A DNA stretch of 64,000 nucleotides. Source: an uncultured Verrucomicrobiota bacterium (GTDB lineage: Bacteria; Verrucomicrobiota; Kiritimatiellia; RFP12; UBA1067). Location of the stretch: the NCBI GenBank assembly GCA_946055075.1, contig CAMGEN010000002.1:1174-65173 (forward strand), in the 5' to 3' direction. The notes under the pieces were generated by a model. The model had not been told where the DNA came from, searched no databases, and saw only the letters and a program-made list of their open reading frames with translations. Below, piece by piece: positions 9,216-50,986 of the stretch (position 1 is the stretch's first letter; the number at the start of each line of letters is the position of its first letter). The translations under genes were made by a program, and so were the position numbers.

Positions 9216-11220
9216 TCAACAGCTCCTTCAGTCGGGCCTCGTCAATGACCTCGGTGCCGAGTTTCTTCGCCTTCTCCGTCTTCGTCGCGCCGGTATTCTC
9301 ACCTGCGACGAGATACCGAGTCTTCTTCGTCACCGAACTCTGGACGATACCGCCAGCAGCCTCAATCAGCTTCGCATACTCCTCACGCGGACGCGACAAA
9401 GTTCCGGTCAGCACGCAACCAACACCGGCCAAAGGTCCCTCGGACTTCACCTCACGTTTCGGCTCCGTAGGAACTATCCCGAGCTTCGCCAAGCGTTCCA
9501 GCCACGACTCGATCTGCAGTTTCACGTCTTCGGACGGCTCCAGTTCGCCGCTCGCAATCTTCTTTGCCGTAGTGACGCCGACGGAGGGAATACCCATCGC
9601 GAAGATCCAACGCGAAAGCGGCAATGTCCTAGACGCCGCGACCGCCTCGCGGAGATTATCGGCGTTTCTGCCGAACCTGCGTCCCGCCGCCTGCTTCTCC
9701 GCGAACGCGAACAGATCGTCCTCCCCATTCCCCGTTCCCCGTTCCCCATTCCCCGTTCCCTGCTCCTGGGAGACATCCAGGTCCCTGAGGTTATCGTAAT
9801 CAAGCGTAAACAGATCAAGCGGATCTCTGACGACCCCCTTCTCAACAAGGACTTCCGCCAGCCTTCCACCGAGCGCCTTGAGATCAAGCGCATTACGACT
9901 CGCGAAATGCTCAAGCCGACGACAGAGTTGCGCGGGACACGAAGGATTGACACAGCGAATGGCGACTTCACCTTCTTCACGGCGCGTTTCGCCGCCACAA
10001 ACCGGACAACGATCGGGCATCACGAAGATCTTTTCCGATCCGTCACGCTTCTCGACGATAACTGAATCAACCGCGGGAATAACGTCGCCAGCCTTCACCA
10101 GCCATACATGGTCTCCAACTCTCACGTCCTGACGCGCGATCTGATCGGCGTTATGCAGTGTCGCACGAGAAATCACGCTGCCGGCGAGTTCAGTAGGACG
10201 AAGCTCCGCCACGGGAGTGAGAATACCAGTACGACCGACCTGCACCGTAATGGACTCCACCACGGTCTCTGCACGCTCAGGAGCATATTTGAACGCGCGC
10301 GCCCAGCGCGGCCCATGAGCGGTCGCCCCCAGAAGCTCGTAAAACCGCCGCTCGTCAATCTTGATCACCGCGCCATCGATCTCAAAACGGAAGGTATGGC
10401 GCAGCCCCCCGAGTTCATTGATCGCCGTGAGCACCTCGTCGATATCGTGACAGAACCTCGACCACGGCGCGACCGGAAAACCCCACTTGGAGAAAGCCGA
10501 AATCATCTCGCTGTGCGAGGAAAAGCCCTCGCAGCCTACGCCACCTGCATTGTAAATGACGACATCGAGGGGCCGTTCGGCGGTGACCCTGGAATCAAGC
10601 TGCTTCAACGACCCCGCACAGGCGTTCCGGGGATTAGCGAACTCCTCCCTACCCTCGGACGCAAGCTTTTCGTTCAGCAGCACAAATCCGTCTCGGGTCA
10701 TATATGCCTCGCCGCGGACCTCCAGTTCGGCTGGCGCGGACTCAGGGAGCGTCTTCGGAACCGACGCAATCGTCATCACATTCGCGGTAATATCATCGCC
10801 GATGGTTCCGTTTCCACGTGTAGCCGCACGCACAAGTCGGCGACCCGAATACCTGAGCGACAGCGAAATCCCATCTATCTTCGGTTCCACGAGATAGGTA
10901 AAACCGGAAATCGACTTGGTGACGAATTCATCGAAGGTTCTGAGCTCGTCAAAGGAATGCGTCTTATCAAGCGATTGCATCGGCGGATCGTGACGGACCT
11001 TGGCAAAACCCTCGGTGATGTCGCTCGCGACATTACGGACCGGCGAATCTGCGCTGGCGAACTGCGGAAAGTCGTCCTCAAGCGCAAGCAGCTCTTTCTC
11101 CCAAAGATCATAATCGCGATCGCCGACCGTGGGCTGGTGCAATTCGTAGTAATCGCGATTGGCCTTCTCAATCAAAGCCCGCAGTTCCGCGATCCTCGCA
11201 CTGGCTTCTGATTCAGTCAT
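9208..11220 (-). CDS. ligA: NAD-dependent DNA ligase
   Basis: Adenylation motif EPKIDG, Zn-finger Cys4 (CPVCGG...CVNPSCPAQ), C-terminal BRCT (VLTGTL...AGENTGATKTEKA). Confidence 0.95.
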   Translation of the reverse strand: MTESEASARIAELRALIEKANRDYYELHQPTVGDRDYDLWEKELLALEDDFPQFASADSPVRNVASDITEGFAKVRHDPPMQSLDKTHSFDELRTFDEFVTKSISGFTYLVEPKIDGISLSLRYSGRRLVRAATRGNGTIGDDITANVMTIASVPKTLPESAPAELEVRGEAYMTRDGFVLLNEKLASEGREEFANPRNACAGSLKQLDSRVTAERPLDVVIYNAGGVGCEGFSSHSEMISAFSKWGFPVAPWSRFCHDIDEVLTAINELGGLRHTFRFEIDGAVIKIDERRFYELLGATAHGPRWARAFKYAPERAETVVESITVQVGRTGILTPVAELRPTELAGSVISRATLHNADQIARQDVRVGDHVWLVKAGDVIPAVDSVIVEKRDGSEKIFVMPDRCPVCGGETRREEGEVAIRCVNPSCPAQLCRRLEHFASRNALDLKALGGRLAEVLVEKGVVRDPLDLFTLDYDNLRDLDVSQEQGTGNGERGTGNGEDDLFAFAEKQAAGRRFGRNADNLREAVAASRTLPLSRWIFAMGIPSVGVTTAKKIASGELEPSEDVKLQIESWLERLAKLGIVPTEPKREVKSEGPLAGVGCVLTGTLSRPREEYAKLIEAAGGIVQSSVTKKTRYLVAGENTGATKTEKAKKLGTEVIDEARLKELLNG
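9723..9760 (-). repeat. (GGGGAAY) heptamer array, 5-6 units, in-frame in ligA
   Basis: Plus strand ccccattccccgttccccgttccccattccccgttccc. Coding strand GGGAACGGGGAATGGGGAACGGGGAACGGGGAATGGGG, encoding GTGNGERGTGNGE. Confidence 0.95.
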
Positions 11221-11891
11221 TCGTTAGCACCCCTGTATCGAACCTTCTTGGGATTCGCGTTCTGTACTGCGGCGGAACCGCCGCGGGCAGTACGGTCGAC
11301 GACCGCACTTTCGCCGTGCATATCGGTCACCAGTACCGAACGCCGATATCCGCGCATCGCAAGAAACGCCATGAAGGTGCGGACCGGCTTGAGATTGCGC
11401 TGCACAGCAGGAGTGATACCAATATGAATGACCGCATCCCTAGGGATCTGATACTCCTCGAGCAAGTCTGGCACGTCCTGGGGACGAACCGGTTTGCCGT
11501 TGAATCGGAGTTCGTTCTCGTCCAGGACAAGAATTGGGTGATTGACGCCGTACTGCACTTCGCGAACCGTAGTACAGCCAGAGACCAGGAACATGTAGAG
11601 AATCGTACCTACGACAATGGACAACAGAGAATTCTTCCTCCAGAGCTGAAGTCCGACGGTCAAGCCCCCCGCAAGATATGGCCATGCGGTCTTCCATTCG
11701 AGTCCGGAATAGGAATAGATGATGAGACCGGCGATGATCACTGGCGAAATGAAATCCCCGAACTTCAGCACCCAAGACGGAAGCTCACGGTCGCGACCGG
11801 AGAAGAGCAGAAATGGCAGCGCCCGAAGCGTGTAGTTCACCAAGAACCCCACGGTCACGATGCCGAGCATATACAGAATCTCTCTTTCCAT
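11217..11891 (-). CDS. AzlD-like membrane protein with an extra C-terminal soluble domain of about 115 aa
   Basis: N-terminal ~105 aa with 3-4 TM segments, AzlD-like, directly after azlC. GGAGGAGG RBS. The C-terminal pattern (LVLDENELRFNGKPV...VIHIGITPAV...MAFLAMRGYRRSVLVT) resembles the ExbD/TolR periplasmic fold. ATGA overlap with ligA. Confidence 0.55.
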   Translation of the reverse strand: MEREILYMLGIVTVGFLVNYTLRALPFLLFSGRDRELPSWVLKFGDFISPVIIAGLIIYSYSGLEWKTAWPYLAGGLTVGLQLWRKNSLLSIVVGTILYMFLVSGCTTVREVQYGVNHPILVLDENELRFNGKPVRPQDVPDLLEEYQIPRDAVIHIGITPAVQRNLKPVRTFMAFLAMRGYRRSVLVTDMHGESAVVDRTARGGSAAVQNANPKKVRYRGANE

Positions 11892-12550: not shown

Positions 12551-12552
12551 AG

Positions 12553-13335: not shown

Positions 13336-13347
13336 AATTGTTATCCT

Positions 13348-15490: not shown

Positions 15491-17158
15491 TCAACGCGAA
15501 TTCTTCATTTCTCTTCCAAGCAAATCTTCAGCAAGCGCTCCAACGGCATCAAGCCCAGCCTCGTCAGCGGCAACCAGCAGATTACGCAAGGCCGGAACGA
15601 CATGCCGCTTAAACTGTGGCTGCCCAACCGACGCCAAACGCCCGTACGCGCCGAGACACTGACAAAGTCGCTGAACTGCCGCAAACGGAACGACCTTCAC
15701 GAACTCCTCTCGCTTCGCGGTCTTTGCATAAAGCGCAATCAGCGCGGCACGATCCTTCTCCGAGAAATCGACATAGGGATCGTAGACAAGCGATGCAAGA
15801 TCGTATGCCGCGGGACCCAGACGCATCCCCTGAAAATCGATGAAGCAGAGCTCACCGTTCTTCCAGAGGACGTTCGTGGACTGAAAATCCCTATGAACGA
15901 GAGCCTTTGGCTCAGCCTCAAGCATCTCAGCTACACCCTCGAGTTCCTTGCGGACCGCATCCGGCATCTCCATCCCGAAATACGCCTTGAGGCAATACTT
16001 CTCGAACAGCATCCGCTCCCACTCCCACGTCTCGTCATCAAATGGCGGCAACAGATCCGGAAGACACTTCTCCGATCCGAGTGAATTGAACTTCACCAGC
16101 GTCTCGACCACCTTCGCATAATCGACGAGCGACATCTTCTTCTCAACGCCGGCGAACTCCATCGCCAGAGTCTTGATTTCCGGACGGTCGAAGAGGATCT
16201 CCGGCACCGGAATCCCGTGGGCCTTGAGCCAACGCGAGTGCCCCGCATACTTGCCGTTCTCATCACGGTTGCCGTCATCATACATGACAATGATCTTCCC
16301 GCCCTCGCGGAAGAACACACGCTCGGAACCTCGGGCCCCGAGGAACTCAATAGCAGCCGCGGAATCTTGCGCAGACACAGCGCCCTGGCCGCCGGAGAGA
16401 GAAACAAGAACCTCCCTGACCTGGGGAATCGCATCAAAGGCGTTGTCCGCGCCGTCACGGTTGAGGTCGATGTAGCTCATGATCGTACCAGCATCAGCCC
16501 AGTTCATCGAAGATGGAGCCAACGCCCTCACGAACTTCCCGTCCGCCATCGCCCGCTCGTACGCGGTGATGATCGAAGAGAATCCTTCTGGTTCTACATA
16601 ATCTAGGATCTCGGGCTTGAGAAGCGAGATGCCGGCGTAGGTGAAAGTACCCGGATAACCACGATCATCACTCTTCCAGTTAGTGACAAATCCGCTTTCG
16701 GGCTCAACCTCGATAGTGCGCGGCCCCTGTTCGGTGACGATCGCCTCGGCGATGACGTCTTTACGCTCGGCAAAATCGTCGAAGCGGAATTGGAAACCGT
16801 CAATACCGTCCACCACGATATCTCCATTCACCAACAGAAATGGCTCGTTACCGATCCACTCGCGAAGAGGATTCAAAGCGCCGCCGTTACCGAGGATCTC
16901 CGGCTCGTAACTGACCTTGACCCGAACCTTCTCTCCACGCTCCTGGAACCTCTTGCGCAATTTGTCGGACCAAGAACGGATCTGCTCGTGAAGATGATGA
17001 GAATTGAATGCAAAATCATCAACACCCCATCCGCGAAGCAGATCCACCATGCGATCAAGCATCGTCACGCCCCAGACCGGCATCAGCGGTTTGGGCGTAG
17101 CGCAAGTGAACGGCCGCAGCCGCGTCCCGTGCCCCGCCGCTAAAACAATCGCCTTCAT
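15491..17158 (-). CDS. Fusion protein: N-terminal sugar-1-phosphate nucleotidyltransferase (MurU-like) + C-terminal APH-type kinase (AmgK-like)
   Basis: N-terminus MKAIVLAAGHGTRLRPFTCATPKPLMPV (NTP-transferase G-x-G-T-R). C-terminus HRDFQSTNVLWKNGELCFIDFQGMRLGPAAYDLASL (APH/choline-kinase catalytic and DFQ motifs). Confidence 0.75.
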   Translation of the reverse strand: MKAIVLAAGHGTRLRPFTCATPKPLMPVWGVTMLDRMVDLLRGWGVDDFAFNSHHLHEQIRSWSDKLRKRFQERGEKVRVKVSYEPEILGNGGALNPLREWIGNEPFLLVNGDIVVDGIDGFQFRFDDFAERKDVIAEAIVTEQGPRTIEVEPESGFVTNWKSDDRGYPGTFTYAGISLLKPEILDYVEPEGFSSIITAYERAMADGKFVRALAPSSMNWADAGTIMSYIDLNRDGADNAFDAIPQVREVLVSLSGGQGAVSAQDSAAAIEFLGARGSERVFFREGGKIIVMYDDGNRDENGKYAGHSRWLKAHGIPVPEILFDRPEIKTLAMEFAGVEKKMSLVDYAKVVETLVKFNSLGSEKCLPDLLPPFDDETWEWERMLFEKYCLKAYFGMEMPDAVRKELEGVAEMLEAEPKALVHRDFQSTNVLWKNGELCFIDFQGMRLGPAAYDLASLVYDPYVDFSEKDRAALIALYAKTAKREEFVKVVPFAAVQRLCQCLGAYGRLASVGQPQFKRHVVPALRNLLVAADEAGLDAVGALAEDLLGREMKNSR

Positions 17159-17184
17159 TCCTTATTCCCAATTCCCCATTACCG
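17157..17184 (-). repeat. ATTCNNN heptamer array (x4) spanning a cistron junction
   Basis: Plus strand attcctt attccca attcccc attaccg. Minus strand CGGTAAT GGGGAAT TGGGAAT AAGGAAT G contains the upstream TAA stop (17179-17181) and the ATG (17158). Confidence 0.85.
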
Positions 17185-17988: not shown

Positions 17989-17994
17989 GCCAAT

Positions 17995-18003
17995 ATTATA
18001 TCA
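17995..18003 (-). promoter_or_regulatory. Extended -10 promoter TGATATAAT (leaderless configuration)
   Basis: Reverse complement of attatatca. Only 6 nt lie between TATAAT and ATG 17988. Confidence 0.6.
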
Positions 18004-22178: not shown

Positions 22179-22188
22179 TTAGCGGCAT

Positions 22189-22197
22189 ATTATATCA
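22189..22197 (-). promoter_or_regulatory. Extended -10 promoter TGATATAAT upstream of lepA
   Basis: Preceded by a T5 run. 10 nt between TATAAT and ATG 22178. Confidence 0.6.
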
Positions 22198-22208: not shown

Positions 22209-23066
22209 CTATCGCAGGATGGCAAGAGCCTGACGGAGCTGCTCGTCGGCAACGGACGAATTGGGCTCAAGTACTAAATGTTCACATTTCTCCATCATCG
22301 GCTTAAACAACTCGAAATTAATGTCGCCATCTCCGGGTGCCAGATGATCGTCACCACCCTTCGAATCATTAAGATGCATCCCGACAGGCACATACTCATC
22401 ATTCGGACTTTCCCACCGCAATCCCTCATTCCTAACACCGACTTCCTCATTCATCCTCGCGTACCAGTGCCCCGTATCGAACCAGGGGCGCACCCAGTCG
22501 CCAGTTACTTCACCGACTTCGGAAAGATTCGGGAACCCTTCAGGATAGGGAAGATTCTCGAGCCCGAGCTTAACATGATACTTCTCAAGTTCCGGCACCA
22601 ACGTTTCGAGTTCCTGCTTCAGGATGTCGATCATCATCCTGCCGCGCTTGACACGATTCTTTTCTAGCGGACCCTTCGCGATGCGAATCGGCAACAACCG
22701 AGTAAACAGAGACTCTCTACAAACACGTCCGGCATGCAGAACCAAAGCCGTCGCCCCCATTTCGGCGGCGAAGGCGATGTTGCGGCGGATCATGATCTGC
22801 GCCATCTTGCGCATCTCCTCATCGAACGACGCGAGCTGATAGAGCTCTGGATAGCCGTTTGGTGCGGAGATCGGAACGGGGCAGAACGCGTGAACGCTAC
22901 AAACCGGAATCCTGTCCAGGCGTGCCTTGAATCCGGCAACCTGCCGGACCGTCGTGTGGAACCCGAGCTCGAGTCCGTCAAACCCCAACTCCATCGCCTT
23001 GTCAGCAATCTCCTCTCCGAACTCAAAACGACGGTTGCACCAGTTCGTGGAAAGCGAGAACTTCAT
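22209..23066 (-). CDS. Sugar phosphate isomerase/epimerase (xylose isomerase-like TIM barrel)
   Basis: MKFSLSTNW...GFDGLELG...LVLHAG...LGLENL pattern. ATG 23066 forms an ATGA overlap with the upstream stop. Confidence 0.7.
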   Translation of the reverse strand: MKFSLSTNWCNRRFEFGEEIADKAMELGFDGLELGFHTTVRQVAGFKARLDRIPVCSVHAFCPVPISAPNGYPELYQLASFDEEMRKMAQIMIRRNIAFAAEMGATALVLHAGRVCRESLFTRLLPIRIAKGPLEKNRVKRGRMMIDILKQELETLVPELEKYHVKLGLENLPYPEGFPNLSEVGEVTGDWVRPWFDTGHWYARMNEEVGVRNEGLRWESPNDEYVPVGMHLNDSKGGDDHLAPGDGDINFELFKPMMEKCEHLVLEPNSSVADEQLRQALAILR

Positions 23067-24070: not shown

Positions 24071-24081
24071 CAGGTTTTCAA

Positions 24082-24133
24082 CACCACAACTGTTCACTGG
24101 TCGCGACTCCCCGTTCACTGCTCACTGATCACT
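24082..24133 (-). repeat. Heptamer array at the TadE-like/aminopeptidase junction plus a shared 17-mer
   Basis: Plus strand gttcact gctcact gatcact (24113-24133) and gttcact at 24092. The 17-mer caccacaactgttcact (24082-24098) recurs at 29469-29485 with 1 mismatch. Confidence 0.85.
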
Positions 24134-24392
24134 TTACAACAGTCATCTGCGGCATCTGACAATGCTCCTTCACCTTCATCGTTTCGACAACGACAGTACC
24201 GAACTGGAGGCCGACCTCGACATCGCCGTTACCCTCGGACCTGCCGGACCGCGTCGTATTCTGAGCGCGAAGGCTTCTGGCCATGAACACAGCGAATCCA
24301 CAAAGCGTAGAGACGACAATCACCAGCGTCAACATGCCTACCGCCAGCTCGACCATCGCCTGTCCGGAGCGAGCATATCCTTTAATGAGCAT
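24129..24392 (-). CDS. TadE-like pseudopilin
   Basis: MLIKGYARSGQAMVELAVGMLTLVIVV (G-Q-A-M-V-E plus a hydrophobic helix). GGAGGA lies 7 nt upstream of ATG 24392. Overlaps the upstream stop by 11 nt. Confidence 0.7.
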   Translation of the reverse strand: MLIKGYARSGQAMVELAVGMLTLVIVVSTLCGFAVFMARSLRAQNTTRSGRSEGNGDVEVGLQFGTVVVETMKVKEHCQMPQMTVVK

Positions 24393-37719: not shown

Positions 37720-37727
37720 TCATGAAT

Positions 37728-37736
37728 ATTATATCA
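37728..37736 (-). promoter_or_regulatory. Extended -10 promoter TGATATAAT upstream of scpA
   Basis: Preceded by a T5 run. 8 nt between TATAAT and ATG 37719. Confidence 0.6.
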
Positions 37737-37811: not shown

Positions 37812-39776
37812 CTAAGAAAAGCAAACCTCCGGAAACAGTTCGACGCCTTTGCGAAGAAGGACACGATTACGCATAATCTGCATAAGCGCAAGGAAATCGG
37901 AGGCTGTCGCGGAATCTGGCGGAGCAACGATCACGTTCGCGTGCTCCGACCAGACACTGGCACCGCCGACTCGGAGCCCCTTGCAACCGCAGTCTTCAAG
38001 CAACCGTCCCGCGAAATCTCCTTCCGGATTCCTGAAGACGCTACCCCGAGTGTGCGCTGGAAACTTCCGCCGCTTCGCGAGATAGTACTCCACGCTCTCG
38101 CATTCCCCATTCTTCACTCCCCGTTCCCCTTTAAAACGGACGTCCTGAATCTCGCCGGTCAGATCGGAATGACGATAGGAGAAGCCGCATTCGGAAGCCG
38201 GTATCCATTTGCCGTCCACCTTCACCGATTCGATCACTTCGCAAATTGAGTGTCCGTGCGCTCCGGCGTTCATCTTCACCCACCCGCCGAGCGTACCGGG
38301 AATACCGGACATCCACGGGAAAAGAGTGCTTAGCGCAGGGTGCTTTGTGCCGAGTTGAGACACAGGACCACTCGACTTCACATACTCGACGGATAGATTA
38401 AGGTCGGTCTTGACAGTATTGGTCCCTGCCCCAATCCAAATCTTACGAACCTTAACACCGCCATTCCTAATTCCTAATTCACACTTCCTAATTCTCTCCA
38501 AGATGTCCCCTGCGCCCTGAACCAACGTAACGTCGCCCGGACGCATCGAGTTCCGCGCATGCTCCCACGCATCCTCGCAGCTCTTCGCCAGAAACACTCT
38601 GGCATTCCCTTCTCGACCTCGACCTTCAACCTCAACCTGCCGCAAGGCGGCATACAGATCGCAGCTGTCCCCGCCTTCGATCGGCTTCTCGAACGCGGAA
38701 TAGATCGGACAGATCACCACCTCGTCCGCGAGCATCAGCGCCTCGGCAAACTCGCGTTTGAACGCCGCAGTTCGCGAATAACGGTGCGGCTGAAAAAGAA
38801 CACGGACAATCGGCCGAGAGGACGGGTAAGAGCCAAGAATCTGGGGCGCCCCAAGCAGAACGCGGGCGCGAGTGATGGCGTAACGGATTTCGGTCGGGTG
38901 ATGTCCATAATCCGCATAGACGCCTTCGGCGATTCTCTGGAAGCGACGGTCGGGGAGTTCGGCGGTCACCCGCGGCAGAACCGCCGCGATCGCCGCGGCG
39001 GAATGCCCGCGGGACAACGCGACCCGCACTGCCAGCATCGCATTAGGATCGTGTAGCAAGTGATCAGAGAACAGCAGACGGCTATCGGTTGAGGAACTGC
39101 AGATCCGCAACTGCTCGCTGCCAACCGCTCCCTGTTCGCCCCCCTCGATAACGCGATCGGCATTCGCACGAGCGGTCTCGTAGCATGCGAAGTAATCGGC
39201 AATGGTCTTAAAGTGGTCGGGATGGTCGTATTCACAGTTGGTGACGACAAGCGTCTTCGCATGATAAAGCGCCAGTGTACCGTCCGATTCATCCGCCTCA
39301 ACAACGAGAACGCCGGTATTGGAATCCGATGCCGAAGAATGAATGCCAGCCACCGGAAAGTTTCCGGTCTCGCCGCCGATCGCCCATTCGACCGATTCTC
39401 CGAGCTCGATCAACAGCTTCGCGATAAAGGTCGAAGTCGTGGTCTTACCGTGAGAACCGCAAACGGCGATCGAATCCGAGGACTCGTTAACGATCTCCGC
39501 CAGCACCTCACCGCGGCATCTGCGCCGCGATTCCGCAACGACGTATTCCGGATTGTCCTTGGCGACGGCAGGAGTAACAATCACGAGATCGTGCCCGTCG
39601 ACATGCGCGGCGTCATGCCCGATTGCCACGGGAATCCCAAGTGACTCGAGCCACCGCGTACGCGGCGTTGCCTTCAGATCGCAACCATCGACCTGATGTC
39701 CCCTTGCCTTCAAGAGAACGGCGAGGCCGGCCATGCCAACCCCGCCAATACCTACGAAATGAATCCTCATCATCAC
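37812..39776 (-). CDS. MurC-MurB fusion (UDP-MurNAc:L-Ala ligase + UDP-GlcNAc-enolpyruvyl reductase)
   Basis: N-terminus IHFVGIGGVGMAGLA, GSHGKTTT (MurC). C-terminus SGIPGTLGGWVKMNAGAHG, GSVFRNP, GGASVWSEHANVIV (MurB). Confidence 0.88.
   Translation of the reverse strand: MMMRIHFVGIGGVGMAGLAVLLKARGHQVDGCDLKATPRTRWLESLGIPVAIGHDAAHVDGHDLVIVTPAVAKDNPEYVVAESRRRCRGEVLAEIVNESSDSIAVCGSHGKTTTSTFIAKLLIELGESVEWAIGGETGNFPVAGIHSSASDSNTGVLVVEADESDGTLALYHAKTLVVTNCEYDHPDHFKTIADYFACYETARANADRVIEGGEQGAVGSEQLRICSSSTDSRLLFSDHLLHDPNAMLAVRVALSRGHSAAAIAAVLPRVTAELPDRRFQRIAEGVYADYGHHPTEIRYAITRARVLLGAPQILGSYPSSRPIVRVLFQPHRYSRTAAFKREFAEALMLADEVVICPIYSAFEKPIEGGDSCDLYAALRQVEVEGRGREGNARVFLAKSCEDAWEHARNSMRPGDVTLVQGAGDILERIRKCELGIRNGGVKVRKIWIGAGTNTVKTDLNLSVEYVKSSGPVSQLGTKHPALSTLFPWMSGIPGTLGGWVKMNAGAHGHSICEVIESVKVDGKWIPASECGFSYRHSDLTGEIQDVRFKGERGVKNGECESVEYYLAKRRKFPAHTRGSVFRNPEGDFAGRLLEDCGCKGLRVGGASVWSEHANVIVAPPDSATASDFLALMQIMRNRVLLRKGVELFPEVCFS
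38102..38129 (-). repeat. ATTCNNN/GGGGAAY heptamer array in the MurB part
   Basis: Plus strand attcccc attcttc actcccc gttcccc, encoding KGERGVKNGE. Confidence 0.85.
38463..38497 (-). repeat. TAGGAAT-type heptamer array (x5) at the MurC/MurB domain junction
   Basis: Plus strand attccta attccta attcaca cttccta attctct, encoding RKCELGIRNGG. Confidence 0.88.
38610..38639 (-). repeat. TCRACC-family 30-mer in-frame in the MurC part
   Basis: TTCTCGACCTCGACCTTCAACCTCAACCTG matches 63655-63684 at 28/30 positions. Encodes QVEVEGRGRE. Confidence 0.92.
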
Positions 39777-40922: not shown

Positions 40923-40940
40923 TGTCGTATTCCTTTCGAC

Positions 40941-41171
40941 TTAAGCCATGAGGCCCATGTTACGGGCGCGCTTAACACCCTGGCGGATCTGACGCTGCTG
41001 CGCGGCGGTGATGCCGGTGATACGAGCGGGCAGAATCTTGCCGTAATCGGTGATGTAATGCTTCAGAGTCTCGATGTCATTGACGTCGATCTGATCGTTC
41101 TTGCCGAGCGGCGGACGCTTACGCGCCGCGAATTCTTCTCCGGCAGAGCTGTTGGATTTCTTGAAAGCCAT
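40941..41171 (-). CDS. rpsR: 30S ribosomal protein S18
   Basis: LKHYITDYGKILPARITGITAAQQRQIRQGVKRARNMGLM. Confidence 0.95.
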   Translation of the reverse strand: MAFKKSNSSAGEEFAARKRPPLGKNDQIDVNDIETLKHYITDYGKILPARITGITAAQQRQIRQGVKRARNMGLMA

Positions 41172-41222
41172 AACTTTTAAAAGTGTTTGGATTATGAGTT
41201 AGTGAGTGTTTGATTCGAAACC

Positions 41223-41657
41223 TCAGAAAGGAATGTCGTCAGGGTCAGCCTCAAGCGGATTCACGGCCGATACCGGAGCGGCGGCAGGCGTTTCCTCGAC
41301 ATTGCGGGGACCGCCGGCGAGCCGATCGCCTTTCGGCAGGAACTTGATCGTCTGAGCACGAACCTTCAGCTTCTGGTGCTTCTGACCGTCCTTCTCCCAC
41401 GAATCCATCTGCAGACGCCCCTCAACGAGAATCGAACTTCCCTTAGAGAGATACTGCCCGCAGAGTTCGGCAAGCTTATCCCAGGCATCCACGTCAATAA
41501 AGACGGGATTGTCAATGACATTGCCATTGCGATCCTTACGTCGCTCCGAAACCGCGAGACCAAGGCGCGCAACTTTCATGCCGCTCGCACCGGTCGCGCG
41601 CACATCGGGATCACGCGTGAGGTTGCCCATTAGGATTACACGGTTAAAGGATGCCAT
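41223..41657 (-). CDS. ssb: Single-stranded DNA-binding protein
   Basis: MASFNRVILMGNLTRDPDVR..., OB fold, C-terminal DDIPF tip. Confidence 0.95.
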   Translation of the reverse strand: MASFNRVILMGNLTRDPDVRATGASGMKVARLGLAVSERRKDRNGNVIDNPVFIDVDAWDKLAELCGQYLSKGSSILVEGRLQMDSWEKDGQKHQKLKVRAQTIKFLPKGDRLAGGPRNVEETPAAAPVSAVNPLEADPDDIPF

Positions 41658-41675
41658 GTCGCACCTTCGCTTTCC

Positions 41676-42065
41676 TTAGGCCTCGATCTTGGCGGCGATG
41701 GCGGCGGCAGCGGCCGCATCCTTCTTCGCCTGCTTCTCGGCGCGAGCCTGGCGTTCAGCCGCGATCTTCGCCTCGCGGCGATCGTCGACAGCGAGAATCT
41801 GGACACGGAAGACCTCTTCAACGAGATGGTAGCGGTTGACGAGCTCGTCGACCTTGAGAGGATCGAGCTCGAAACGCACCTTCACGTACACTCCGGATTC
41901 CTTCTTCGACATCGGGCGCGAGAACACACGCTTACCGAGGTTAACCTGCTCGAGCACATTGCCACCGAGACGGGAAACTTCCGCCAGTGCCTTCTCGAGA
42001 TAGGCTTCGAGGGCGTCTTCCTTGGCGACACCGACGAAGATGTAGAGAGCATCGTACTTCTTCAT
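41676..42065 (-). CDS. rpsF: 30S ribosomal protein S6
   Basis: MKKYDALYIFV...RFELDP..., with a Lys/Ala-rich tail. Confidence 0.9.
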   Translation of the reverse strand: MKKYDALYIFVGVAKEDALEAYLEKALAEVSRLGGNVLEQVNLGKRVFSRPMSKKESGVYVKVRFELDPLKVDELVNRYHLVEEVFRVQILAVDDRREAKIAAERQARAEKQAKKDAAAAAAIAAKIEA

Positions 42066-42745
42066 TACTTCTTCTCCTCCTTCTTGTCAGCGGCCGCAGA
42101 AGCTTCCTCCTCCTTACCCTTCTTGATGACCTCCGGGGCCTTCTCGGCCTCACCGGCCGCAGAAGCCGCACCAGTAGCGGGAAGATCATCCGGAGCCTTG
42201 ACAACGGCCACCGGAATCTCGCCGCGGGTCACGATCGTCTGCTTATCACCGAGCTTGAGGTCACGAACGAACAGCGTCTGGTCGACGTTGAGCGCCGAGA
42301 CATCGATCTCGAACTTCTCCGCGATATCCGTCGGCAGGCAGTCGACATCGATCGTGCGGAGCGTCTGTTCCAGAACGCCGCCACCGATCTTCACGCCGAT
42401 CGCTTCGCCCACGAGATACAACGGAACCGTGACGCGGACCTTCTGGGTCAGCGACACTTCGCTGAAATCAACGTGAATGGGAGTACCCGCCAGGACGTCG
42501 TTCTGCATTTCACGCATGAGCGCCGGAACCTCGGTACCGTTCATATCCAGCGTAACCAACAGCTGCTTGCTAGCATGGCCACGCATCGCCATCATGAACT
42601 CGTGCTTGGGGAGCTTGATGAGCTCCGTGCCGCCCTTGTTCATCTTCATGAGCGAGCCGGGGATCATACCCGACTTGCGCAAACGACGGACCGCACCCGT
42701 TCCCTGCTCGGAACGTGTATCCGCCTTGATCTTGATCTGATCCAT
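42065..42745 (-). CDS. rplY: 50S ribosomal protein L25/general stress protein Ctc
   Basis: Long-form L25 (226 aa): ...GMIPGSLM...VTLDMNG...QNDVLAGTPIHVDF. Acidic/Lys-rich tail. Confidence 0.88.
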   Translation of the reverse strand: MDQIKIKADTRSEQGTGAVRRLRKSGMIPGSLMKMNKGGTELIKLPKHEFMMAMRGHASKQLLVTLDMNGTEVPALMREMQNDVLAGTPIHVDFSEVSLTQKVRVTVPLYLVGEAIGVKIGGGVLEQTLRTIDVDCLPTDIAEKFEIDVSALNVDQTLFVRDLKLGDKQTIVTRGEIPVAVVKAPDDLPATGAASAAGEAEKAPEVIKKGKEEEASAAADKKEEKK

Positions 42746-42820
42746 TTATTGCCTTTTTTGGTAATCCGACCACATACTCTCGCGGCACACGCCGCTACCC
42801 TCCGTGGCAAAACGCGGTAT

Positions 42821-42829
42821 ATTATATCA
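42821..42829 (-). promoter_or_regulatory. Extended -10 promoter TGATATAAT for the rplY-rpsF-ssb-rpsR-rplI unit
   Basis: Preceded by a T5 run. 75-nt leader to ATG 42745. Confidence 0.6.
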
Positions 42830-42859: not shown

Positions 42860-44086
42860 TTAGAAAATATGCCCCATCTTTTCGCGCTTGGTATCGAGAT
42901 AGCGCCGGTCGTGAATATTAGCGGGAATCACGATCGGCACCCGCTCGGTGATGGTAAGCCCGTAGCCCTCGAGTCCCTTGATCTTACAAGGATTATTGGT
43001 CATCAACCGAAGCTTGCGGATACCGAGTTCGACGAGAATTTGCGCCCCTTCACCGTAATCACGAAGATCGGGCGCGAAGCCTAACGCGACATTGGCCTCA
43101 ACAGTATCCATGCCTTTCTCCTGCAGATGATAAGCATGGAGTTTGTTCGCAAGCCCTATGCCGCGTCCCTCCTGGCGCATGTAGATAATGGCGCCTCTCC
43201 CTTCCTTCTCAATCATCTCCATCGCCGTATGGAGCTGCGGACCGCAGTCGCAGCGCTCGGATCCGAGCACGTCGCCAGTGAAGCATTCGGAATGCACCCG
43301 CACCAACACCGGTTCGCCGTCCGCTACATCACCCTTCACGAGCGCGAGATGCTCGAGGCCGGAAAGGCGCGAGCGGAACATCGTCAGCTTGAAGTCACCG
43401 TGCTCCGTCGGCAGATCCACCGTCTCGACCCTGTCGACAAGAACGTTGTCACCGCTGTCGACCTCCTCCTCGTTCCTCGACCTTCTGTAGGCGATGAGAT
43501 CGGCTATCGTCATAAGGTGCAGCTTATGCTCCGCGGCGAACGCCTTGATGTCATCCATCCGCGCCATCGTGCCGTCATCCTTCATGATCTCGCAGCAGAG
43601 CCCCACTTCCTTGAGCCCGGCGAGCCGGCAGAGATCGACCGTCGCCTCGGTGTGTCCCGCGCGTTTGAGGACACCGCCTTCACGGGCCTGCAGCGGAAAC
43701 ATGTGCCCCGGGCGGCGGAAGTCCGTCGGCTTCACGTCATCCGCCACGCACCGGAGCGCGGTCATCGAGCGTTCCGCGGCGGATATGCCGGTCGTCGTAT
43801 CGACGCCGTCGATGGAGACGGTGAAGGCGGTCTGATGGTTGTCGGTGTTCTGACGGACCATCTGCGGGAGGTCGAGCTTCTCACACCATGCACGGCTCAT
43901 CGGCATGCAGATGAGACCCTTCGCATACGTGGCCATGAAATTGACGTTCTCCGTCGTCGCGAACTCGGCGGCGCAGATACAGTCTCCCTCGTTCTCCCGG
44001 TCCTCGTCATCTGTGACCAGCACGATCTCGCCGCGCTTCAACGCTTCCAGACACGCTTCTACCGAACTGAATTCACCGCTCTTCAA
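42860..44086 (-). CDS. ribBA: Bifunctional 3,4-dihydroxy-2-butanone-4-phosphate synthase / GTP cyclohydrolase II
   Basis: [10 protein letters not shown] (RibB) and [21 protein letters not shown] (RibA). TTG start with GGAGG 7 nt upstream. Confidence 0.93.
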
Positions 44087-44109
44087 CCTTTAACCTCCAG
44101 CCTTCAGCC
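44082..44109 (-). repeat. Heptamer array (x4) filling the VIT-vWA/ribBA junction
   Basis: Plus strand ttcaacc tttaacc tccagcc ttcagcc. On the minus strand it supplies the SD (GGAGG) and the TTG start, and it abuts the TAA stop at 44110-44112. Confidence 0.88.
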
Positions 44110-46533
44110 TTATTTGATTTCAATCTCGCCGATCGGATGCTTGTCCTTCGGCTTGTCCAGCCGCAGGGACATGATCTGGCGCTTCTCGTCCTTCGTTCCC
44201 CAGCCCGTGTACACGGTCGCCGAAATCGTCGCCGCGCCGGTAAGCTGCTGACGATGAGAAGCGAAATAATTGGCGAGGATCTTGTATACGCCCTTGTCAG
44301 CGGTCTTGCGCAGATACTCCTCCGGACCATATCCGGTCGTCACGTCTTCCGACACGAAGCCGCCGGAAGAGGTTCTGCGATGTCCGTAGAACGCCTCTTC
44401 TCCATCCGGTTCGAGAACATGCAGATCGACGTCCGTCTCGTCCGTATCCCACGAGAGCATGATGCGGAGCTCACACGGCATATCGCGGCGGAACGCGGCA
44501 TCGATTTCAGGAAGCTTCCAGTCAAGTCCGTTCTCCTTGACCCACGCATAGACGCCGTTCAGCTCCTCAAGCGCGAAAACGCTCGTCTGAAGATCGTTGC
44601 CGCGGCGTCCGCTACGACGGGCAACGGGATTGAACGCAGCGTCCTTAAGCAGTAAGACCGCCTCGTTGATATCACGGGAATCCTTCTTCTCCTTGCCGCG
44701 CTCGGTAAGGACGAGCGCAAGGTCGCGCCTGGACTGCGGCTCCTCTGGACGCATCTCGAGGACGTGGCGGAACGCCTCGACCGCCTCGTCGTAGAGTCCC
44801 GCCTCGCGCAGACGCCACGCCATCGTGCGCCACATCCCAACATCCTCAAGTTTCATCTCCGAAAGATTGGAGATGATCCGCGCACCGAGCTTCAGGTCTT
44901 TCGCCTTGAAGAACCAGCCCGCGCAATCGAGATAGAACGCCGGCGAATTGCCATAGACTTCACGCTGCTTGAGATATTCGGCATAGGCACAGCCGTTCGC
45001 CACGCCACTCATCGCCTTCAGATACGGCATATCCGGATTCCACGCGGCGATCTTCACGTTCGCGACATTCTCCGCAGCCTCGGATCCGGACTTTGCCTTC
45101 GCGACGCGCCCCCCGTACGCGGAAACCCAGCGCACCCCGCCGACGGGTGCAAGCCCTTCCGCCGCCGGAGGCACCGGCTCTTCGGCCTCTTCCACCATCG
45201 GAGCGGACTCCTCCCTCGAAGCCGCCCTTAACGAAGACGACCTCGCCACGCCATCGAAGAGTCCGCTCTTAGGAGTCTTCTTAGGCGGCACCGGATCGTT
45301 CCACCACTTCACCCTCTCCTGCCAGTAGTTGAGCAGCTGCGAACGATGCTCCGCCTTCGCCTTTTCCGCGGCGATCGGATCGTCTTCGGATGCGCGCCAC
45401 TTCTTCCACTCGTCGTAGAAGCTCATGCATTTCGGCGGCTCGATCTTGTAGGTCTTGTACTGCTCGAGCGATTCAAGGACGATCATCGAAGTGACGGACG
45501 ACGCGACGCCGTATCTTCTGCCGATTTCAACAAGCTCGTCCTTATGAGACTGCGCATCATCGGCGAGATCTTCGACCCGGCACGCCGCCCATGCCGCAGC
45601 AAGAAGCGTTCCCTCCTTCGGCTCCGCATCCGGCTTCTCGTCCTTATCAAGTTTCCTCACTGAAATCTGCCGCGGTTTCGATTCCTTGTATTCGTCAGAA
45701 AAGACGAAGCAGGCGGCTGGCAGTTGGCAGTCGGCGGACTTCAGTGCCTTTCCGAGACAGGTGCCGCCGTCGTAAACGAGTGAATCAACCGCCTTGAGGA
45801 GATCCATGCGATTGGAGAACCTGAGCGGTTCTTCAATGACATTGCGAAACACGGTCAAAGTGAAATCACCATTCTCTGGCAGACATTCAAGCAGATTGCG
45901 GTCGGACTGGAAGCTGTCCTTGCGGGACATCGAAGCGTCCCAGTAGATCACGGCCTTCGCCGCATTGCGAAGCCGGTCGGCAAGCGGAATGGACCGAGCC
46001 GACCCTTTGCCAGGGTATTCTCCGACGAACACCTCGTCGCCGAACTTCTCATAGACCTTCTTCGTATCCTTCACGGTCACCTCGTCGGCAATGATGTAAG
46101 CGACCATCGCCTTGCGGGGAGTGTTCGGCATCAGGGGATAGATACGCGTCTTCCAGACATTCCCCTTCACATGCTCGACGATGCCCGGATCGACACCTTG
46201 TCTCTTTTCGTTCTCGAAGGCGACACGGGCCTCTTTCTTGGGGACGACGACGCCGGGTACCATCGATCCGTTGACCTCGAGCTGATAGCCGCAGACGGTC
46301 GCGCCGTCTGGAACGGGGAATTCGAGCTCGCCCTCGAAGGCCCGTCCGTTGGGGTTAGTAAAGACGATCGTCGTCTCGACGCGACGGAAGAGTCCGTTAT
46401 CTTCGACAATCTTCGCGCTCGTCTCGACGACGACCGGTTTCTCATCCGCCTTAATGACGGAGGGATGGAATATCGGCTCGGGATTGGACACGATGAGAGA
46501 CTGGGCAAGCATCACGACTGGTAGAATATTCAT
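44110..46533 (-). CDS. Large VIT + vWA-like + TPR protein with a C-terminal YfaP/DUF2135-like beta domain
   Basis: VIT-like N-terminus (TIVFTNPNGRAFEGELEFPVPDGATVCGYQLEVNG...VWKTRIYPL). TPR region (EAVEAFRHVLEMRPEEPQSRRDLA). C-terminus LSWDTDETDVDLHVLEPDGEEAFY. Confidence 0.7.
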   Translation of the reverse strand: MNILPVVMLAQSLIVSNPEPIFHPSVIKADEKPVVVETSAKIVEDNGLFRRVETTIVFTNPNGRAFEGELEFPVPDGATVCGYQLEVNGSMVPGVVVPKKEARVAFENEKRQGVDPGIVEHVKGNVWKTRIYPLMPNTPRKAMVAYIIADEVTVKDTKKVYEKFGDEVFVGEYPGKGSARSIPLADRLRNAAKAVIYWDASMSRKDSFQSDRNLLECLPENGDFTLTVFRNVIEEPLRFSNRMDLLKAVDSLVYDGGTCLGKALKSADCQLPAACFVFSDEYKESKPRQISVRKLDKDEKPDAEPKEGTLLAAAWAACRVEDLADDAQSHKDELVEIGRRYGVASSVTSMIVLESLEQYKTYKIEPPKCMSFYDEWKKWRASEDDPIAAEKAKAEHRSQLLNYWQERVKWWNDPVPPKKTPKSGLFDGVARSSSLRAASREESAPMVEEAEEPVPPAAEGLAPVGGVRWVSAYGGRVAKAKSGSEAAENVANVKIAAWNPDMPYLKAMSGVANGCAYAEYLKQREVYGNSPAFYLDCAGWFFKAKDLKLGARIISNLSEMKLEDVGMWRTMAWRLREAGLYDEAVEAFRHVLEMRPEEPQSRRDLALVLTERGKEKKDSRDINEAVLLLKDAAFNPVARRSGRRGNDLQTSVFALEELNGVYAWVKENGLDWKLPEIDAAFRRDMPCELRIMLSWDTDETDVDLHVLEPDGEEAFYGHRRTSSGGFVSEDVTTGYGPEEYLRKTADKGVYKILANYFASHRQQLTGAATISATVYTGWGTKDEKRQIMSLRLDKPKDKHPIGEIEIK

Positions 46534-46590: not shown

Positions 46591-46614
46591 CCCATTCCCT
46601 ATTCCCTATTCCCC
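46591..46614 (-). repeat. Intergenic GGGAAT(A) heptamer array with four G-runs
   Basis: Minus strand GGGGAATAGGGAATAGGGAATGGG, about 58 nt upstream of ATG 46533. Confidence 0.9.
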
Positions 46615-46654
46615 ATCACTTGATCTCCTGCGCTCCCTTGCCGGCCATTGCACC

Positions 46655-47266: not shown

Positions 47267-47282
47267 GATGGTTTTCCTTAAT

Positions 47283-48855: not shown

Positions 48856-50981
48856 AGGATATTGCCCTTTCTATGAATTCGTTCAATACGTTTTTCCGCC
48901 TCTGCGGACGCTGGCACCGACGCAGTAACGACAAGACGCAGTACCGCAACCGCCTGCGCGTCGGAGCCACGGCTTTCGTATTCTTCAGCGAGTCGAAAAG
49001 CCGCGCGCGAAAAAGCCGCACGCGCATCATCGTCGTAGGGGATACCTTCAGTCCTCCCGTCACGATATGCCAAAACCACCCGCGAATAATACTCGTCGAT
49101 CGCCTGATCCATCCGCTTCAGACGTTCAAGCGTCTTGGCGAGCTTATAAGAGAGCCGGATCTTGACGGACGGCGAAAGCTTCTCGCCTGAACGGAGCGCC
49201 GTGTAGGCCTCCAAGGCCTGGCGGTAACGAACCGGATCATCCGCTCCCATCGCAAACAACGCATCCGCCCTCAGCAACTGCGCACGAAGGCGAAGCGTCG
49301 CGTCGGCCTCCGCCGCAATTGACACGCGTTCAGCGACGAGAATCGACTCATCGAACCGCGCAAGCTCAATCAGCGACTCGGCCTGCAACAGCATGCCCTC
49401 GACAGAGGAGCGAGTCCCGGGGCAAGTCGAATCAAGCCGCGTGGCGTTTTGCACCGTCTTTTGGAAATCGCCCGCCGCAAAGGCTGCCCGAGTCGCCCAC
49501 AGCAACGGTTCTGACGCAACGGACGGATCTTCAGCCCGGTCCGCACAAGTGCTGAAACCAGCCTCCGCTTCGCGATACCGTCCGCGGTTGTAAAGATACT
49601 TGGCAAGCCACATGGACGCATCAAAACGCACCCGCCGGTCCTCCGAACTAGAAGAAATCTCAACTGCCTTCTTCTCCGCCGCAGCATCCTGATTGAGCCC
49701 ATACAGACAGACCATGTCGTAGTACGCCATCCGCGGAGCCAAAGAAGAATCACGCTTCGCGACCTCCGCGAAGATCGTTCGCGCATCGTCGAAACGATAC
49801 GCAGCGAAAGCATCGTACCCCTTCTGTTCAAGCTCCCGCACCGACACCATTTCCTTGACCTTCCTCGCCGCCACCGTATCCGAGTAACTTGCAAGAGCCT
49901 CGCGATAACGGGACATTGACTCCTCACGCTTGCCGAGATTGGCGAGGACGTCTCCCGACTTCACCATCGCAAGCGCCTTCGTCTCGTCATCAGCCGACAT
50001 CGCAAGCGCAATCGAGAACTCGGTTAGCGCCTCTTCATTACGCCCAGTCTCGGCCAGCGCCCAACCGATACCAAGCCGCACGGACGCCTCTTTCGCCGTC
50101 TCCGGCCAGGTCTCCATCGCCTCGCGATAAGTCTGAATGCAGACGGCGTAATCGCCACGTGAGAGCTCCACATCGGCCAACGACAGAAACGCCTCCTTCG
50201 CCCCGCGGAAATCCGGAGAATCCTTAGCGATACGGCGGATAATCGACGCGCCCTCCGAAAAGCTGCCCTTCTCGCGAACAAGCAGCATGCCGAGTTGAAT
50301 ACCGGCGAAACGAACGACATCGGGATCAGTGGACTCCGAAACCACTCGGCGAAGCGCTGCAACGTCAGCAAGGTTAGCAGCCGCAATCGACACCGCCGAT
50401 TCAGGAGCATTCGTCATCGCAACCACTTCCCGCCAGAGCGCCTCCGCCTCGGCGTCTTCCCCGCGAGATTTGTGAATCGCTGCGGACACCATCTTCGAAT
50501 CCGCACCACCGCCACTGGCTTCAAGCTTCGATAGCGCCGCATCGACATAACCCTCGCGCCGAAGCACCGCCGCATGCAACAATGAGGCGTCCGCAGCAAT
50601 GACACCGCGGGAGAAGTCGGTAGATTCGAGCAGCCGTCGCGCGGCATCGTGTTCACCGGTACGATAAAGCGCCGCCGCCTTATAGTATGCGAATTCCGGG
50701 ACTTCAGACTTGCCGTACGCCTCAACCGTGGACAGCACATCCGACCACTTGTGCTCGCGCGCGAAGCTCTCGAGCACCACGATCTTTGCAAGGTCACCGT
50801 CTGCTTTACGGGCATGTGTGCGCGCGACCTCCCAGAGGCCATCCCGCAGCGCCTGCCGCGCAACGTCGATTTCGCCAGCATAAGCAGCCGAAATCGAATG
50901 AAGCATGAAAAACGAAAGATGAAGAACGAAAAGAAGGCAGTGCCTTCCGCAATTCCTCATTCTCAATTCTTCAATCTTCAT
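48852..50981 (-). CDS. Large secreted TPR-repeat protein
   Basis: Signal-like CLLFVLHLSFFMLHSISAAYA, followed by many TPR-like helices. TAATG overlap with era. Confidence 0.75.
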   Translation of the reverse strand: MKIEELRMRNCGRHCLLFVLHLSFFMLHSISAAYAGEIDVARQALRDGLWEVARTHARKADGDLAKIVVLESFAREHKWSDVLSTVEAYGKSEVPEFAYYKAAALYRTGEHDAARRLLESTDFSRGVIAADASLLHAAVLRREGYVDAALSKLEASGGGADSKMVSAAIHKSRGEDAEAEALWREVVAMTNAPESAVSIAAANLADVAALRRVVSESTDPDVVRFAGIQLGMLLVREKGSFSEGASIIRRIAKDSPDFRGAKEAFLSLADVELSRGDYAVCIQTYREAMETWPETAKEASVRLGIGWALAETGRNEEALTEFSIALAMSADDETKALAMVKSGDVLANLGKREESMSRYREALASYSDTVAARKVKEMVSVRELEQKGYDAFAAYRFDDARTIFAEVAKRDSSLAPRMAYYDMVCLYGLNQDAAAEKKAVEISSSSEDRRVRFDASMWLAKYLYNRGRYREAEAGFSTCADRAEDPSVASEPLLWATRAAFAAGDFQKTVQNATRLDSTCPGTRSSVEGMLLQAESLIELARFDESILVAERVSIAAEADATLRLRAQLLRADALFAMGADDPVRYRQALEAYTALRSGEKLSPSVKIRLSYKLAKTLERLKRMDQAIDEYYSRVVLAYRDGRTEGIPYDDDARAAFSRAAFRLAEEYESRGSDAQAVAVLRLVVTASVPASAEAEKRIERIHRKGNIL

Positions 50982-50986
50982 TACAC
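50952..50986 (-). repeat. ATTCNNN heptamer array (x5) across the era/TPR-gene junction
   Basis: Plus strand attcctc attctca attcttc aatcttc attacac. Both candidate ATGs (50981, 50960) and the era TAA fall at unit boundaries. Confidence 0.8.

Follow-up and report, generated by a model that had tools for sequence, protein, structure and literature searches.

Heptanucleotide tandem repeats at cistron junctions and in variable segments of housekeeping enzymes of an uncultured Kiritimatiellia bacterium

How can a tandem repeat with a unit of 7 nucleotides (nt), a period that is not a multiple of 3, lie within genes for essential enzymes and also exactly on the junctions between cistrons? The question is raised by a 64-kb stretch of DNA from an uncultured Verrucomicrobiota bacterium of the class Kiritimatiellia (contig CAMGEN010000002.1), here called the window, in which a preliminary description had claimed seven arrays of tandem heptamers. 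We checked these arrays by reading the sequence letters, with Tandem Repeats Finder, and with period scans, and we compared them among strains and related species. The explanation that we favor, with a probability of about 0.7, is that they are heptanucleotide microsatellites: this lineage would tend to form 7-nt tandem repeats and change their length, and selection would filter the outcome.

All seven claimed arrays were found, either where they had been placed or a few bases off. The claim that each has 4 to 6 units held for four of them, and the other three have about 3 units each. Pfam matches in the genes concerned were to LigA, an NTP-transferase/APH fusion (amgK/murU-like), PurD, a MurC-MurB fusion, a VIT-domain protein, a TPR protein, and Era. 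Two further junction arrays, at 44081-44112 and ~24116-24136, were absent from the earlier list. The arrays, with their units in the sense direction, are as follows.

9722-9760, minus strand: array in ligA, GGGAAC GGGGAAT GGGGAAC GGGGAAC GGGGAAT GGGGA, 5.6 units, in-frame, with a G-quadruplex motif.
17159-17178 (feature 17156-17184), minus strand: array in the spacer between a 269-aa open reading frame (ORF) and amgK/murU, TGGGGAA TTGGGAA TAAGGA + ATG, 3 units.
33096-33127, minus strand: array in purD, GGGGAAC GGGGAAA GGGGAAT GGGGGG, 4 units, in-frame, with a G-quadruplex motif.
38102-38129, minus strand: array in murC-murB, GGGGAAC GGGGAGT GAAGAAT GGGGAAT, 4 units of which 2 are degenerate, in-frame.
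38463-38497, minus strand: array in the murC-murB linker, GAATTAG GAAGTGT GAATTAG GAATTAG GAATGGC, 5 units, in-frame.
46591-46614, minus strand: intergenic array upstream of the VIT-domain gene, GGGGAAT AGGGAAT AGGGAAT GGG, 3 units and a fourth G-tract, with a G-quadruplex motif.
50950-50986, minus strand: array at the era stop and TPR-gene start, purine-rich and degenerate, with one 8-nt unit.
50900-50932, minus strand: pyrimidine-rich heptamer array, the inverted partner of 50950-50986.
44081-44112, minus strand: array from the VIT-gene stop to the TTG start of ribBA, TAAGGCT GAAGGCT GGAGGTT AAAGGTT G, with a lag-7 identity of 0.73.
~24116-24136, minus strand: array at a stop/start junction, (AGTGATC AGTGAGC AGTGAAC), that is, (AGTGANC) x3.

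The sense-strand unit is NGGGAAY, which becomes NNGGAAT or NGARGAA in decayed arrays. A scan of the window for RTTC in at least 3 units at period 7 returned 6 arrays on the plus strand and 0 on the minus strand, and the same scan at periods 5, 6, 8, and 9 returned none in the window. For the complementary core, GAAY on the minus strand (at least 3 units at period 7), the 6 arrays observed compare with a mean of 0.067 in dinucleotide-preserving shuffles, and 0 of 300 shuffles reached 6. The preliminary description had named a lack of enrichment over shuffled sequence as the outcome that would speak against it; the enrichment is strong. All window genes from 7.8 kb to the end at 64 kb lie on the minus strand, which is also the G-rich strand.

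Exact-protein look-ups recovered the same locus from many pig-gut metagenome assemblies. The recovered strains were ~99.2% identical to the window and had an identical LigA protein. Among them, the amgK/murU spacer was found in three lengths.

Window, L001, and L002: 20 nt, 3 units.
L003: 62 nt, 9 units.
L004: 97 nt, 14 units.

These alleles differ by whole units within one site, and the spacer flanks and the terminal ...TAAGGAATG / ...AAGGAATG are the same in all three. Between species, the ligA array has 6 units in the window and 9 in L005, a relative with 91% identity in LigA, a difference of exactly 3 units or 7 residues (peptide QGMGNGEQGMGNGEEGMGNGEE). This step fits the earlier prediction that arrays inside genes should change in multiples of 3 units. 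We also considered whether the arrays are hotspots of point mutation and rejected this idea (8 of 215 segregating sites versus a 2.8% background, p = 0.25).

Next to be considered is where in the proteins the intragenic arrays lie. The ligA array encodes QGTGNGERGTGNGE (aa 487-500) in a variable loop of the helix-hairpin-helix domain, within an insertion of ~30 residues just ahead of the G-x-x-N-A motif. This insertion is missing in homologues of up to ~76% identity and is deleted in one close relative, and relatives at 87-88% identity have a loop of similar length that is encoded by non-repetitive DNA. The purD array, which shares the reading phase of the ligA array as had been pointed out, encodes RGTGKGEWGEG (aa 368-378) in the PurD C domain. 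In the structures 2yw2 and 3mjf, this position between I-x-G and VFHAGT is taken by an equally long, unrelated, and non-repetitive segment, with a gap of 1-2 residues, and PurD of one related species has a longer non-repetitive segment there. Because the LigA loops can be non-repetitive and the PurD segment is equally long without a repeat, the repeats fill variable stretches of the proteins and do not supply a function that these need. The preliminary description had regarded non-repetitive DNA at these sites in orthologues as evidence against a repeat family; the LigA relatives at 87-88% identity and the PurD structures show such sites, and the objection is borne out only in part.

It had also been emphasized that every intragenic array keeps the frame open. 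For ligA and purD, this is automatic because GGGGAAY contains no stop triplet in any of the six frames, and the observation is trivial there. It is meaningful for the arrays built of GAATTAG and for those containing TGA. The array at 38463-38497 forms the interdomain linker of MurC-MurB (peptide ERIRKCELGIRNG), and TAG would be in-frame only in its units 2 and 5, which are precisely the units in which TAG is replaced. The other array in this gene (38102-38129) encodes GERGVKNGEC directly N-terminal to the MurB C-terminal domain, a position where relatives have the repeat-encoded peptides VQGNGEQGIGNREQG, EEVRVKSEELR, and ENGERGTGNGEC. At both array positions and in two further variable loops, the MurC-MurB proteins of relatives contain 7-residue-periodic peptides (VKSEELR, KGKSEGE, and GTGNGER), which are encoded by heptamer arrays of different units, such as GTGAAGA and GGAAAAG. 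One relative has five arrays in murC-murB alone, including one in the complementary orientation, (CTCTTCA)5, which encodes SSLFTLH. Judged from these alignments, the intragenic arrays evidently occupy segments that are unconstrained in sequence, and they turn over quickly. An examination of 7-aa periodicity at the protein level among 240 homologues gave too few cases for a strand-bias comparison. An internal MurB start supplied by the GGAATG of the linker array was considered and rejected, as this ATG is out of frame. The MurC-MurB fusion itself (37812-39776, minus strand) is clade-wide, with lengths of 588-754 aa and a MurB part of only ~217 aa. The MurB part has no match to Pfam FAD_binding_4 and aligns with solved MurB structures only from about residue 110; it appears to be N-terminally shortened.

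At cistron junctions, three independent arrays terminate exactly on the start codon. The array before amgK/murU fills the entire 20-nt spacer from the stop of the 269-aa ORF, as TAA-TGGGGAA-TTGGGAA-TAAGGA-ATG. Here the ATG lies at the unit boundary GGAAT-G, as the preliminary description had proposed. Its further proposal, that the GGA core resembles a Shine-Dalgarno (SD) sequence, stands for part of the junctions. Among ~30 called starts, the consensus SD sequence, 8-9 nt before the ATG, reads AAAGGAA(Y) or AAGGAG and is in essence the repeat unit; several junction units (GGTAGTT, AGTAAAA, and TTGTTGG) are not SD-like. Intergenic units start with A or T, which makes TAG or TAA, and any frame that opens at an ATG within the 9- and 14-unit alleles meets a stop after 5-12 codons (as in MGNRE and a stop). 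In the array at 24116-24136, unit 1 holds the TGA of the upstream gene and unit 3 holds, at the equivalent position, a candidate GTG start of the ORF at 23063-24118, a start taken from a mechanical ORF list and not from a gene call. The ribBA junction array (44081-44112) was the same in 8 strains and differed by one base in a ninth (L218); a metagenome scan with the ribBA protein returned distant relatives only, at no more than 62% identity. The array upstream of the VIT-domain gene lies ~58 nt 5' of the ATG of that gene and 41 nt 3' of the stop of a phosphoribosyltransferase-domain gene. Its length was constant in 8 strains, and a scan for promoter and terminator consensus sequences around it found none.

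The junction arrays are not confined to this species. Relatives, L227 and L228 included, have at least 6 arrays that extend from one stop to the next start, such as TAA-ggag-taaggag-caaggag-taaggag-taagt-GTG and TGA-gtagggaatagggaatagggaagaggga-ATG. Our survey took in 58 spacers between genes on the same strand, 14-140 nt long, in this species and in six relatives. Self-identity was 0.394 at lag 7 versus 0.26-0.32 at other lags, and lag 7 was the best lag in 24 of the 58. An identity of at least 60% at lag 7 was found in 12 of the 58 spacers versus 0-1 at any other lag. The orthologous amgK/murU junction has a different heptamer unit in relative L230, and in L231 it has no spacer and the genes overlap. 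Since some units are not SD-like and the heptamer at a junction changes, it is the period and not the motif that is the constant feature.

The era/TPR site combines coding and junction features. The array at 50950-50986 spans the overlap of the era stop and the TPR start (TAATG) and the first 11 codons (MKIEELRMRNC). It contains a TGA every 7 nt, and a 1-nt insertion shifts one that would be in-frame; this stop-avoiding indel suggests that the region is translated. An in-frame ATG at codon 26 of the TPR gene is lost (ATG to ACG) in three strains, and for this reason the first ATG is probably the real start. The N terminus of the TPR protein would be a charged segment followed by a hydrophobic part that comes from the array at 50900-50932. 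Together, the two inverted arrays (region 50885-50995) are predicted to fold into an RNA hairpin of -41.2 kcal/mol (z = -4.66), and 0 of 200 shuffles were as stable. Inverted purine- and pyrimidine-rich heptamer arrays also occur 3' of a gene in L227 (19505-19650), where they are followed by a third array, (AACAACT/AACCACT)x5, so that several heptamer families share one spacer.

How might such arrays arise and persist? Replication slippage most likely generates and resizes them, and selection would decide where they survive. In spacers, copy number would be free to vary. Because 7 and 3 share no factor, three units bearing TAA or TAG would stop all three reading frames. In the unit, GGA corresponds to the local SD sequence; at the GGAAT-G boundary, an ATG arises with another GGA 7 nt upstream, an arrangement by which slippage would leave the ribosome-binding geometry undisturbed. 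Within genes, arrays would survive only in loops or linkers that tolerate any sequence, at a total length that is in-frame and without in-frame stops. The hydrophilic peptides rich in Gly, Asn, Glu, and Arg that GGGGAAY encodes would be neutral to the protein at such places, and the arrays at junctions may confer a benefit. The 3-, 9-, and 14-unit spacers, the 3-unit step in ligA, and the placement in variable segments and linkers agree with the earlier suggestion of a slippage-generated family that is tolerated in loops.

Several observations weigh against this explanation. No length change and no frameshifted allele was seen in the intragenic arrays among 4-10 strains, and within the species only the amgK/murU spacer array is polymorphic. 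The counts of 3, 9, and 14 units come from short-read metagenome assemblies, which are prone to repeat miscounts, though every array is shorter than the read length. Slippage alone does not explain why one unit recurs at unlinked loci, and the choice of a period of 7 is left unexplained. Moreover, the coding strand is the G-rich one in 7 of 7 arrays, a hint of some constraint that neutrality would not impose; effects of transcription and of replication are inseparable here because every gene from 7.8 to 64 kb lies on the same, G-rich strand.

In an alternative reading, the junction arrays are selected translation elements. Their stops and SD-like units would terminate translation in all frames and offer standby or re-initiation sites in register with the start, and 3, 9, or 14 copies would tune the downstream cistron, possibly via S1, Csp, or a CsrA-like protein, with the intragenic copies as spill-over. 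MacGregor proposed the same for TAACTGA repeats (PMC4679880). Stop-to-start arrays are found repeatedly, at unrelated junctions of four species; lag 7 is the only lag at which 12 of 58 spacers are periodic; units such as TAAGGAG, TAAGGAA, and GTAGGAA agree with the local consensus for SD sequences (AAAGGAA/AAGGAG); the terminal ...AAGGAATG is kept in all three amgK/murU alleles; and L230 has another heptamer unit at the same junction. However, units such as GGTAGTT, AGTAAAA, and TTGTTGG have no SD character, the L231 junction does without an array by overlapping its genes, and a range of 3 to 14 units among near-identical strains looks unconstrained. We consider this reading possible but doubtful, and it overlaps the microsatellite explanation rather than excluding it. 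Its CsrA-like part, and the earlier suggestion that multi-GGA arrays titrate such a protein, found no support: there is no csrA in the window, and no presentation of the GGA motifs in hairpin loops was seen. Searches by tblastn with the CsrA proteins of Escherichia coli and Bacillus subtilis gave nothing below E = 0.9 in the window and nothing at E <= 0.001 in 125 loci. The arrays might instead act as G-quadruplex regulatory elements in DNA or mRNA, a role that has been suggested for the Xanthomonas GGGAATC repeats. The window has only three canonical G-quadruplex motifs, and each of them is an array (those in ligA, in purD, and upstream of the VIT-domain gene) on the sense strand; the 9- and 14-unit alleles contain 8 and 12 G-tracts; and oligonucleotides of the related Xanthomonas repeat form quadruplexes in vitro (PMC4692102). 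Yet 4 of the 7 arrays lack four tracts of three G residues, so that the G-quadruplex reading of the preliminary description applies to 3 of 7 at most, and the count of motifs is not above chance (3 versus a shuffle mean of 1.33 and maximum of 5). In relatives, G-poor heptamers (GTGAAGA, AGTAAAA, GGTAGTT, and AACAGGT) stand at similar positions, sharing the period and not the G-tracts, and stable RNA quadruplexes in essential ORFs would be expected to impede translation. A quadruplex function is therefore distinctly unlikely.

Insertion of ready-made GGGGAAY repeats into the genome, by a small mobile element or from a template, would account for the same unit at unlinked loci and for GTGNGER in different MurC-MurB and LigA loops of relatives and in a glycosyltransferase-like ORF of Kiritimatiellae. 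Readings of the array borders, however, showed neither conserved flanks nor terminal inverted repeats nor target duplications; alleles differ by whole units at one site; the unit differs by species while positions recur; and neither a transposase nor a reverse transcriptase stood out in the gene calls annotated with Pfam, which cover the window only in part. Such insertion seems very improbable. Protein-level selection for flexible Gly-rich linkers, which would make the DNA periodicity incidental, has in its favor that the arrays are placed in loops and linkers, where they encode peptides rich in Gly, Asn, Glu, and Arg, but we give it hardly any credence either. The 7-nt periodicity is a property of the nucleotides, with units that are near-perfect, and non-coding spacers contain these units as well. 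At the corresponding sites, relatives have non-Gly peptides or lack the loop, and the complementary orientation in one relative encodes SSLFTLH.

More speculatively, the period-7 arrays could be selected as self-registering intercistronic cassettes rather than merely tolerated, and slippage would make copy number (3, 9, or 14 units at amgK/murU) a heritable and reversible dial on translational coupling. One stop per unit would close three frames, and the period is close to the SD-to-AUG spacing; a GGA unit would then keep an SD sequence ~7 nt from the boundary-made start whatever the copy number. The same mutational engine would seed linkers, loops, and even signal-peptide-like N termini. We regard selection of this kind as rather unlikely.

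Are these repeats new? Rehm et al. 2015, PLoS One (PMC4692102), described the heptamers GGGAATC in Xanthomonas and GGGGA(C/T)T in Nostoc, and a heterogeneous form GGGANTN. The Xanthomonas GGGAATC repeats number 183-186 per genome, have 2-26 units, and are 89-93% intergenic; they often lie between co-oriented ORFs near stops and starts, with some convergent inverted pairs, and 42-56% of the arrays are quadruplex-capable (four G3 tracts) (PMC4692102). They form quadruplexes in vitro, and their function is unknown (PMC4692102). The arrays here are alike in being tandem 7-nt repeats with a GGGAAT core at many loci, whose length differs between related genomes (3, 9, and 14 units; 6 versus 9 in ligA). 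Head-to-tail runs of at least 2 units (14 bp) are present, with 3-5.6 units at seven sites; arrays stand between co-oriented ORFs near stops and starts, and some are inverted pairs with the potential for a hairpin; they show no link to surface or virulence genes; and by motif 3 of 7 are quadruplex-capable. There are differences too. The search rule of Rehm et al. required the exact heptamer GGGAATC at least once; it is absent from the array sequences read here, where units read GGGAATG/A/T or GGGAACG (position 7 being G, A, or T); the looser GGGANTN form fits the GGGAATN units and not GGGAACN. Five of the 7 arrays overlap ORFs in these 64 kb versus 7-11% there, all are on the coding strand whereas the Xanthomonas arrays are distributed roughly equally between strands, the unit resembles the local SD sequence, the array end supplies a start codon, and the host is neither a xanthomonad nor a cyanobacterium.

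A second family, the TAACTGA direct repeats of marine Beggiatoaceae, cyanobacteria, and Bacteroidetes, was described by MacGregor 2015, Front Microbiol (PMC4679880). These have 2-6 or more units, abut start codons, overlap upstream stops, and hold stops in all frames, and translational control via S1, Csp, or CsrA was proposed (PMC4679880). Arrays near the start or over the upstream stop are likewise found here at amgK/murU, ribBA, 24116-24136, and the L227 and L228 junctions, and a minority of TAACTGA repeats are in ORFs, in peripheral or non-conserved segments. Their unit is unrelated and without SD character, and canonical SD sequences are rare beside them, in contrast to the SD-like unit here; in-frame copies in conserved housekeeping enzymes are prominent here. 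A pattern scan for (GGGAAYN)x4 with one genome per species returned at least 120 loci. Among the 120 matches listed, 67 were from Cyanobacteria, 12 from Xanthomonadales, 10 from Gemmatimonadota, 8 from Acidobacteriota, and 23 from others (including Kiritimatiellae and Lentisphaerota), and most of the arrays look intergenic (75 of 79 in cyanobacteria). These matches include a near-identical (GGGGAAC/T)7, in-frame in a long ORF of a sheep-rumen Kiritimatiellae locus (L021); the translated product resembles a glycosyltransferase.

Dispersed tandem heptanucleotide families are also represented by the cyanobacterial STRR heptamers of Calothrix and Nostoc, which differ in lineage and in their canonical units, and the gene content here is not cyanobacterial. 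Phase-variable contingency repeats, such as the heptanucleotides at hmw1A of Haemophilus influenzae, resemble the present arrays in that the unit is not a multiple of 3 and the copy number of a spacer upstream of a gene differs between strains. They differ in that no frameshift alleles occur here in 4-10 strains and the genes are for housekeeping enzymes (ligA, purD, and murC-murB) and not surface antigens, with no on/off switching evident. Taken together, the arrays are of the same kind as the known GGGAATC and TAACTGA heptamer repeats, in a new lineage. Distinct here are the base at the last position of the unit, the large proportion of in-frame copies in genes for housekeeping enzymes, the uniform coding-strand orientation in the window, and the resemblance to the SD sequence.

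Other features of the window and strains were recorded alongside the arrays. An 11-mer, TGATATAATAT, occurs five times on the minus strand (0 expected), at 2984-2994, 17993-18003, 22187-22197, 37726-37736, and 42819-42829. Copies lie upstream of the nearest placeable starts (gene calls at 17988, 37719, and 2967 and an ORF start at 22178), with distances to the start of 4-8 nt in three cases, 16 nt in one, and ~73 nt in one. Genes of relatives L226, L227, L230, and L231 have the 11-mer in front of them as well. It resembles an extended -10 promoter; lying so near the ATG, it points to mRNAs that are leaderless or have a very short leader. At 57389-57416 (minus strand), (CTGCACY)x4, an unrelated pyrimidine-rich unit, encodes TALCTLHSAL, the hydrophobic core of an apparent signal peptide, in a gene for a beta-galactosidase-like glycoside hydrolase (NCBIfam LacZ-type matches are well below cutoff). 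A TCA-rich repeat with periods of 3, 9, and 18 lies at the ScpB/LysM overlap (35995-36057, minus strand), near the 3' end of ScpB, and codes for a D/E-rich segment. ScpB is 312 or 310 aa long in different strains and is split into 216 + 79 aa in L210; its strain indels, at 36129-36134 and 36284-36285, are outside the TCA-rich repeat.

Strain differences extend beyond the repeats. In L216 (1-9943, compared with window 51935-62000), the gene set directly upstream of era is a different one, with an N6/N4 DNA methyltransferase gene and a helicase-family restriction-like gene among others. A GH31 glycosidase stands at this site in the window and in L219, and the site is thus an island that varies by strain. 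Strain L218 is only 96.5% identical at ~40937-42185, with many small indels across the L25-S6-SSB ribosomal-protein region, which suggests recombination with a more distant relative. The locus also contains prepilin-type N_methyl genes, and a relative has a faint Chlam_PMP match and a giant beta-helix protein. Together with the MurC-MurB fusion and the near-identical array of L021, these features are hints of the PVC group (the Planctomycetes-Verrucomicrobia-Chlamydiae superphylum), to which the bacterium probably belongs. Comparison of the window's proteins by tblastn with the 120 loci listed above gave no close match, NCBIfam showed no family specific to a lineage, and Rfam found a single tRNA.

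Heptanucleotide repeats are over-represented in some bacteria, with an origin and function that are not understood, and this lineage offers a compact test case. A spacer of 20-97 nt, the final unit of which creates the start codon, has natural alleles of 3, 9, and 14 units, and about one in five of the short operon spacers is heptamer-periodic. With several open frames and with internal ATGs, the arrays may mislead start-codon calling, and they may be miscounted in short-read assemblies. The in-frame copies in LigA, PurD, and MurC-MurB reveal which parts of these essential enzymes tolerate arbitrary sequence.

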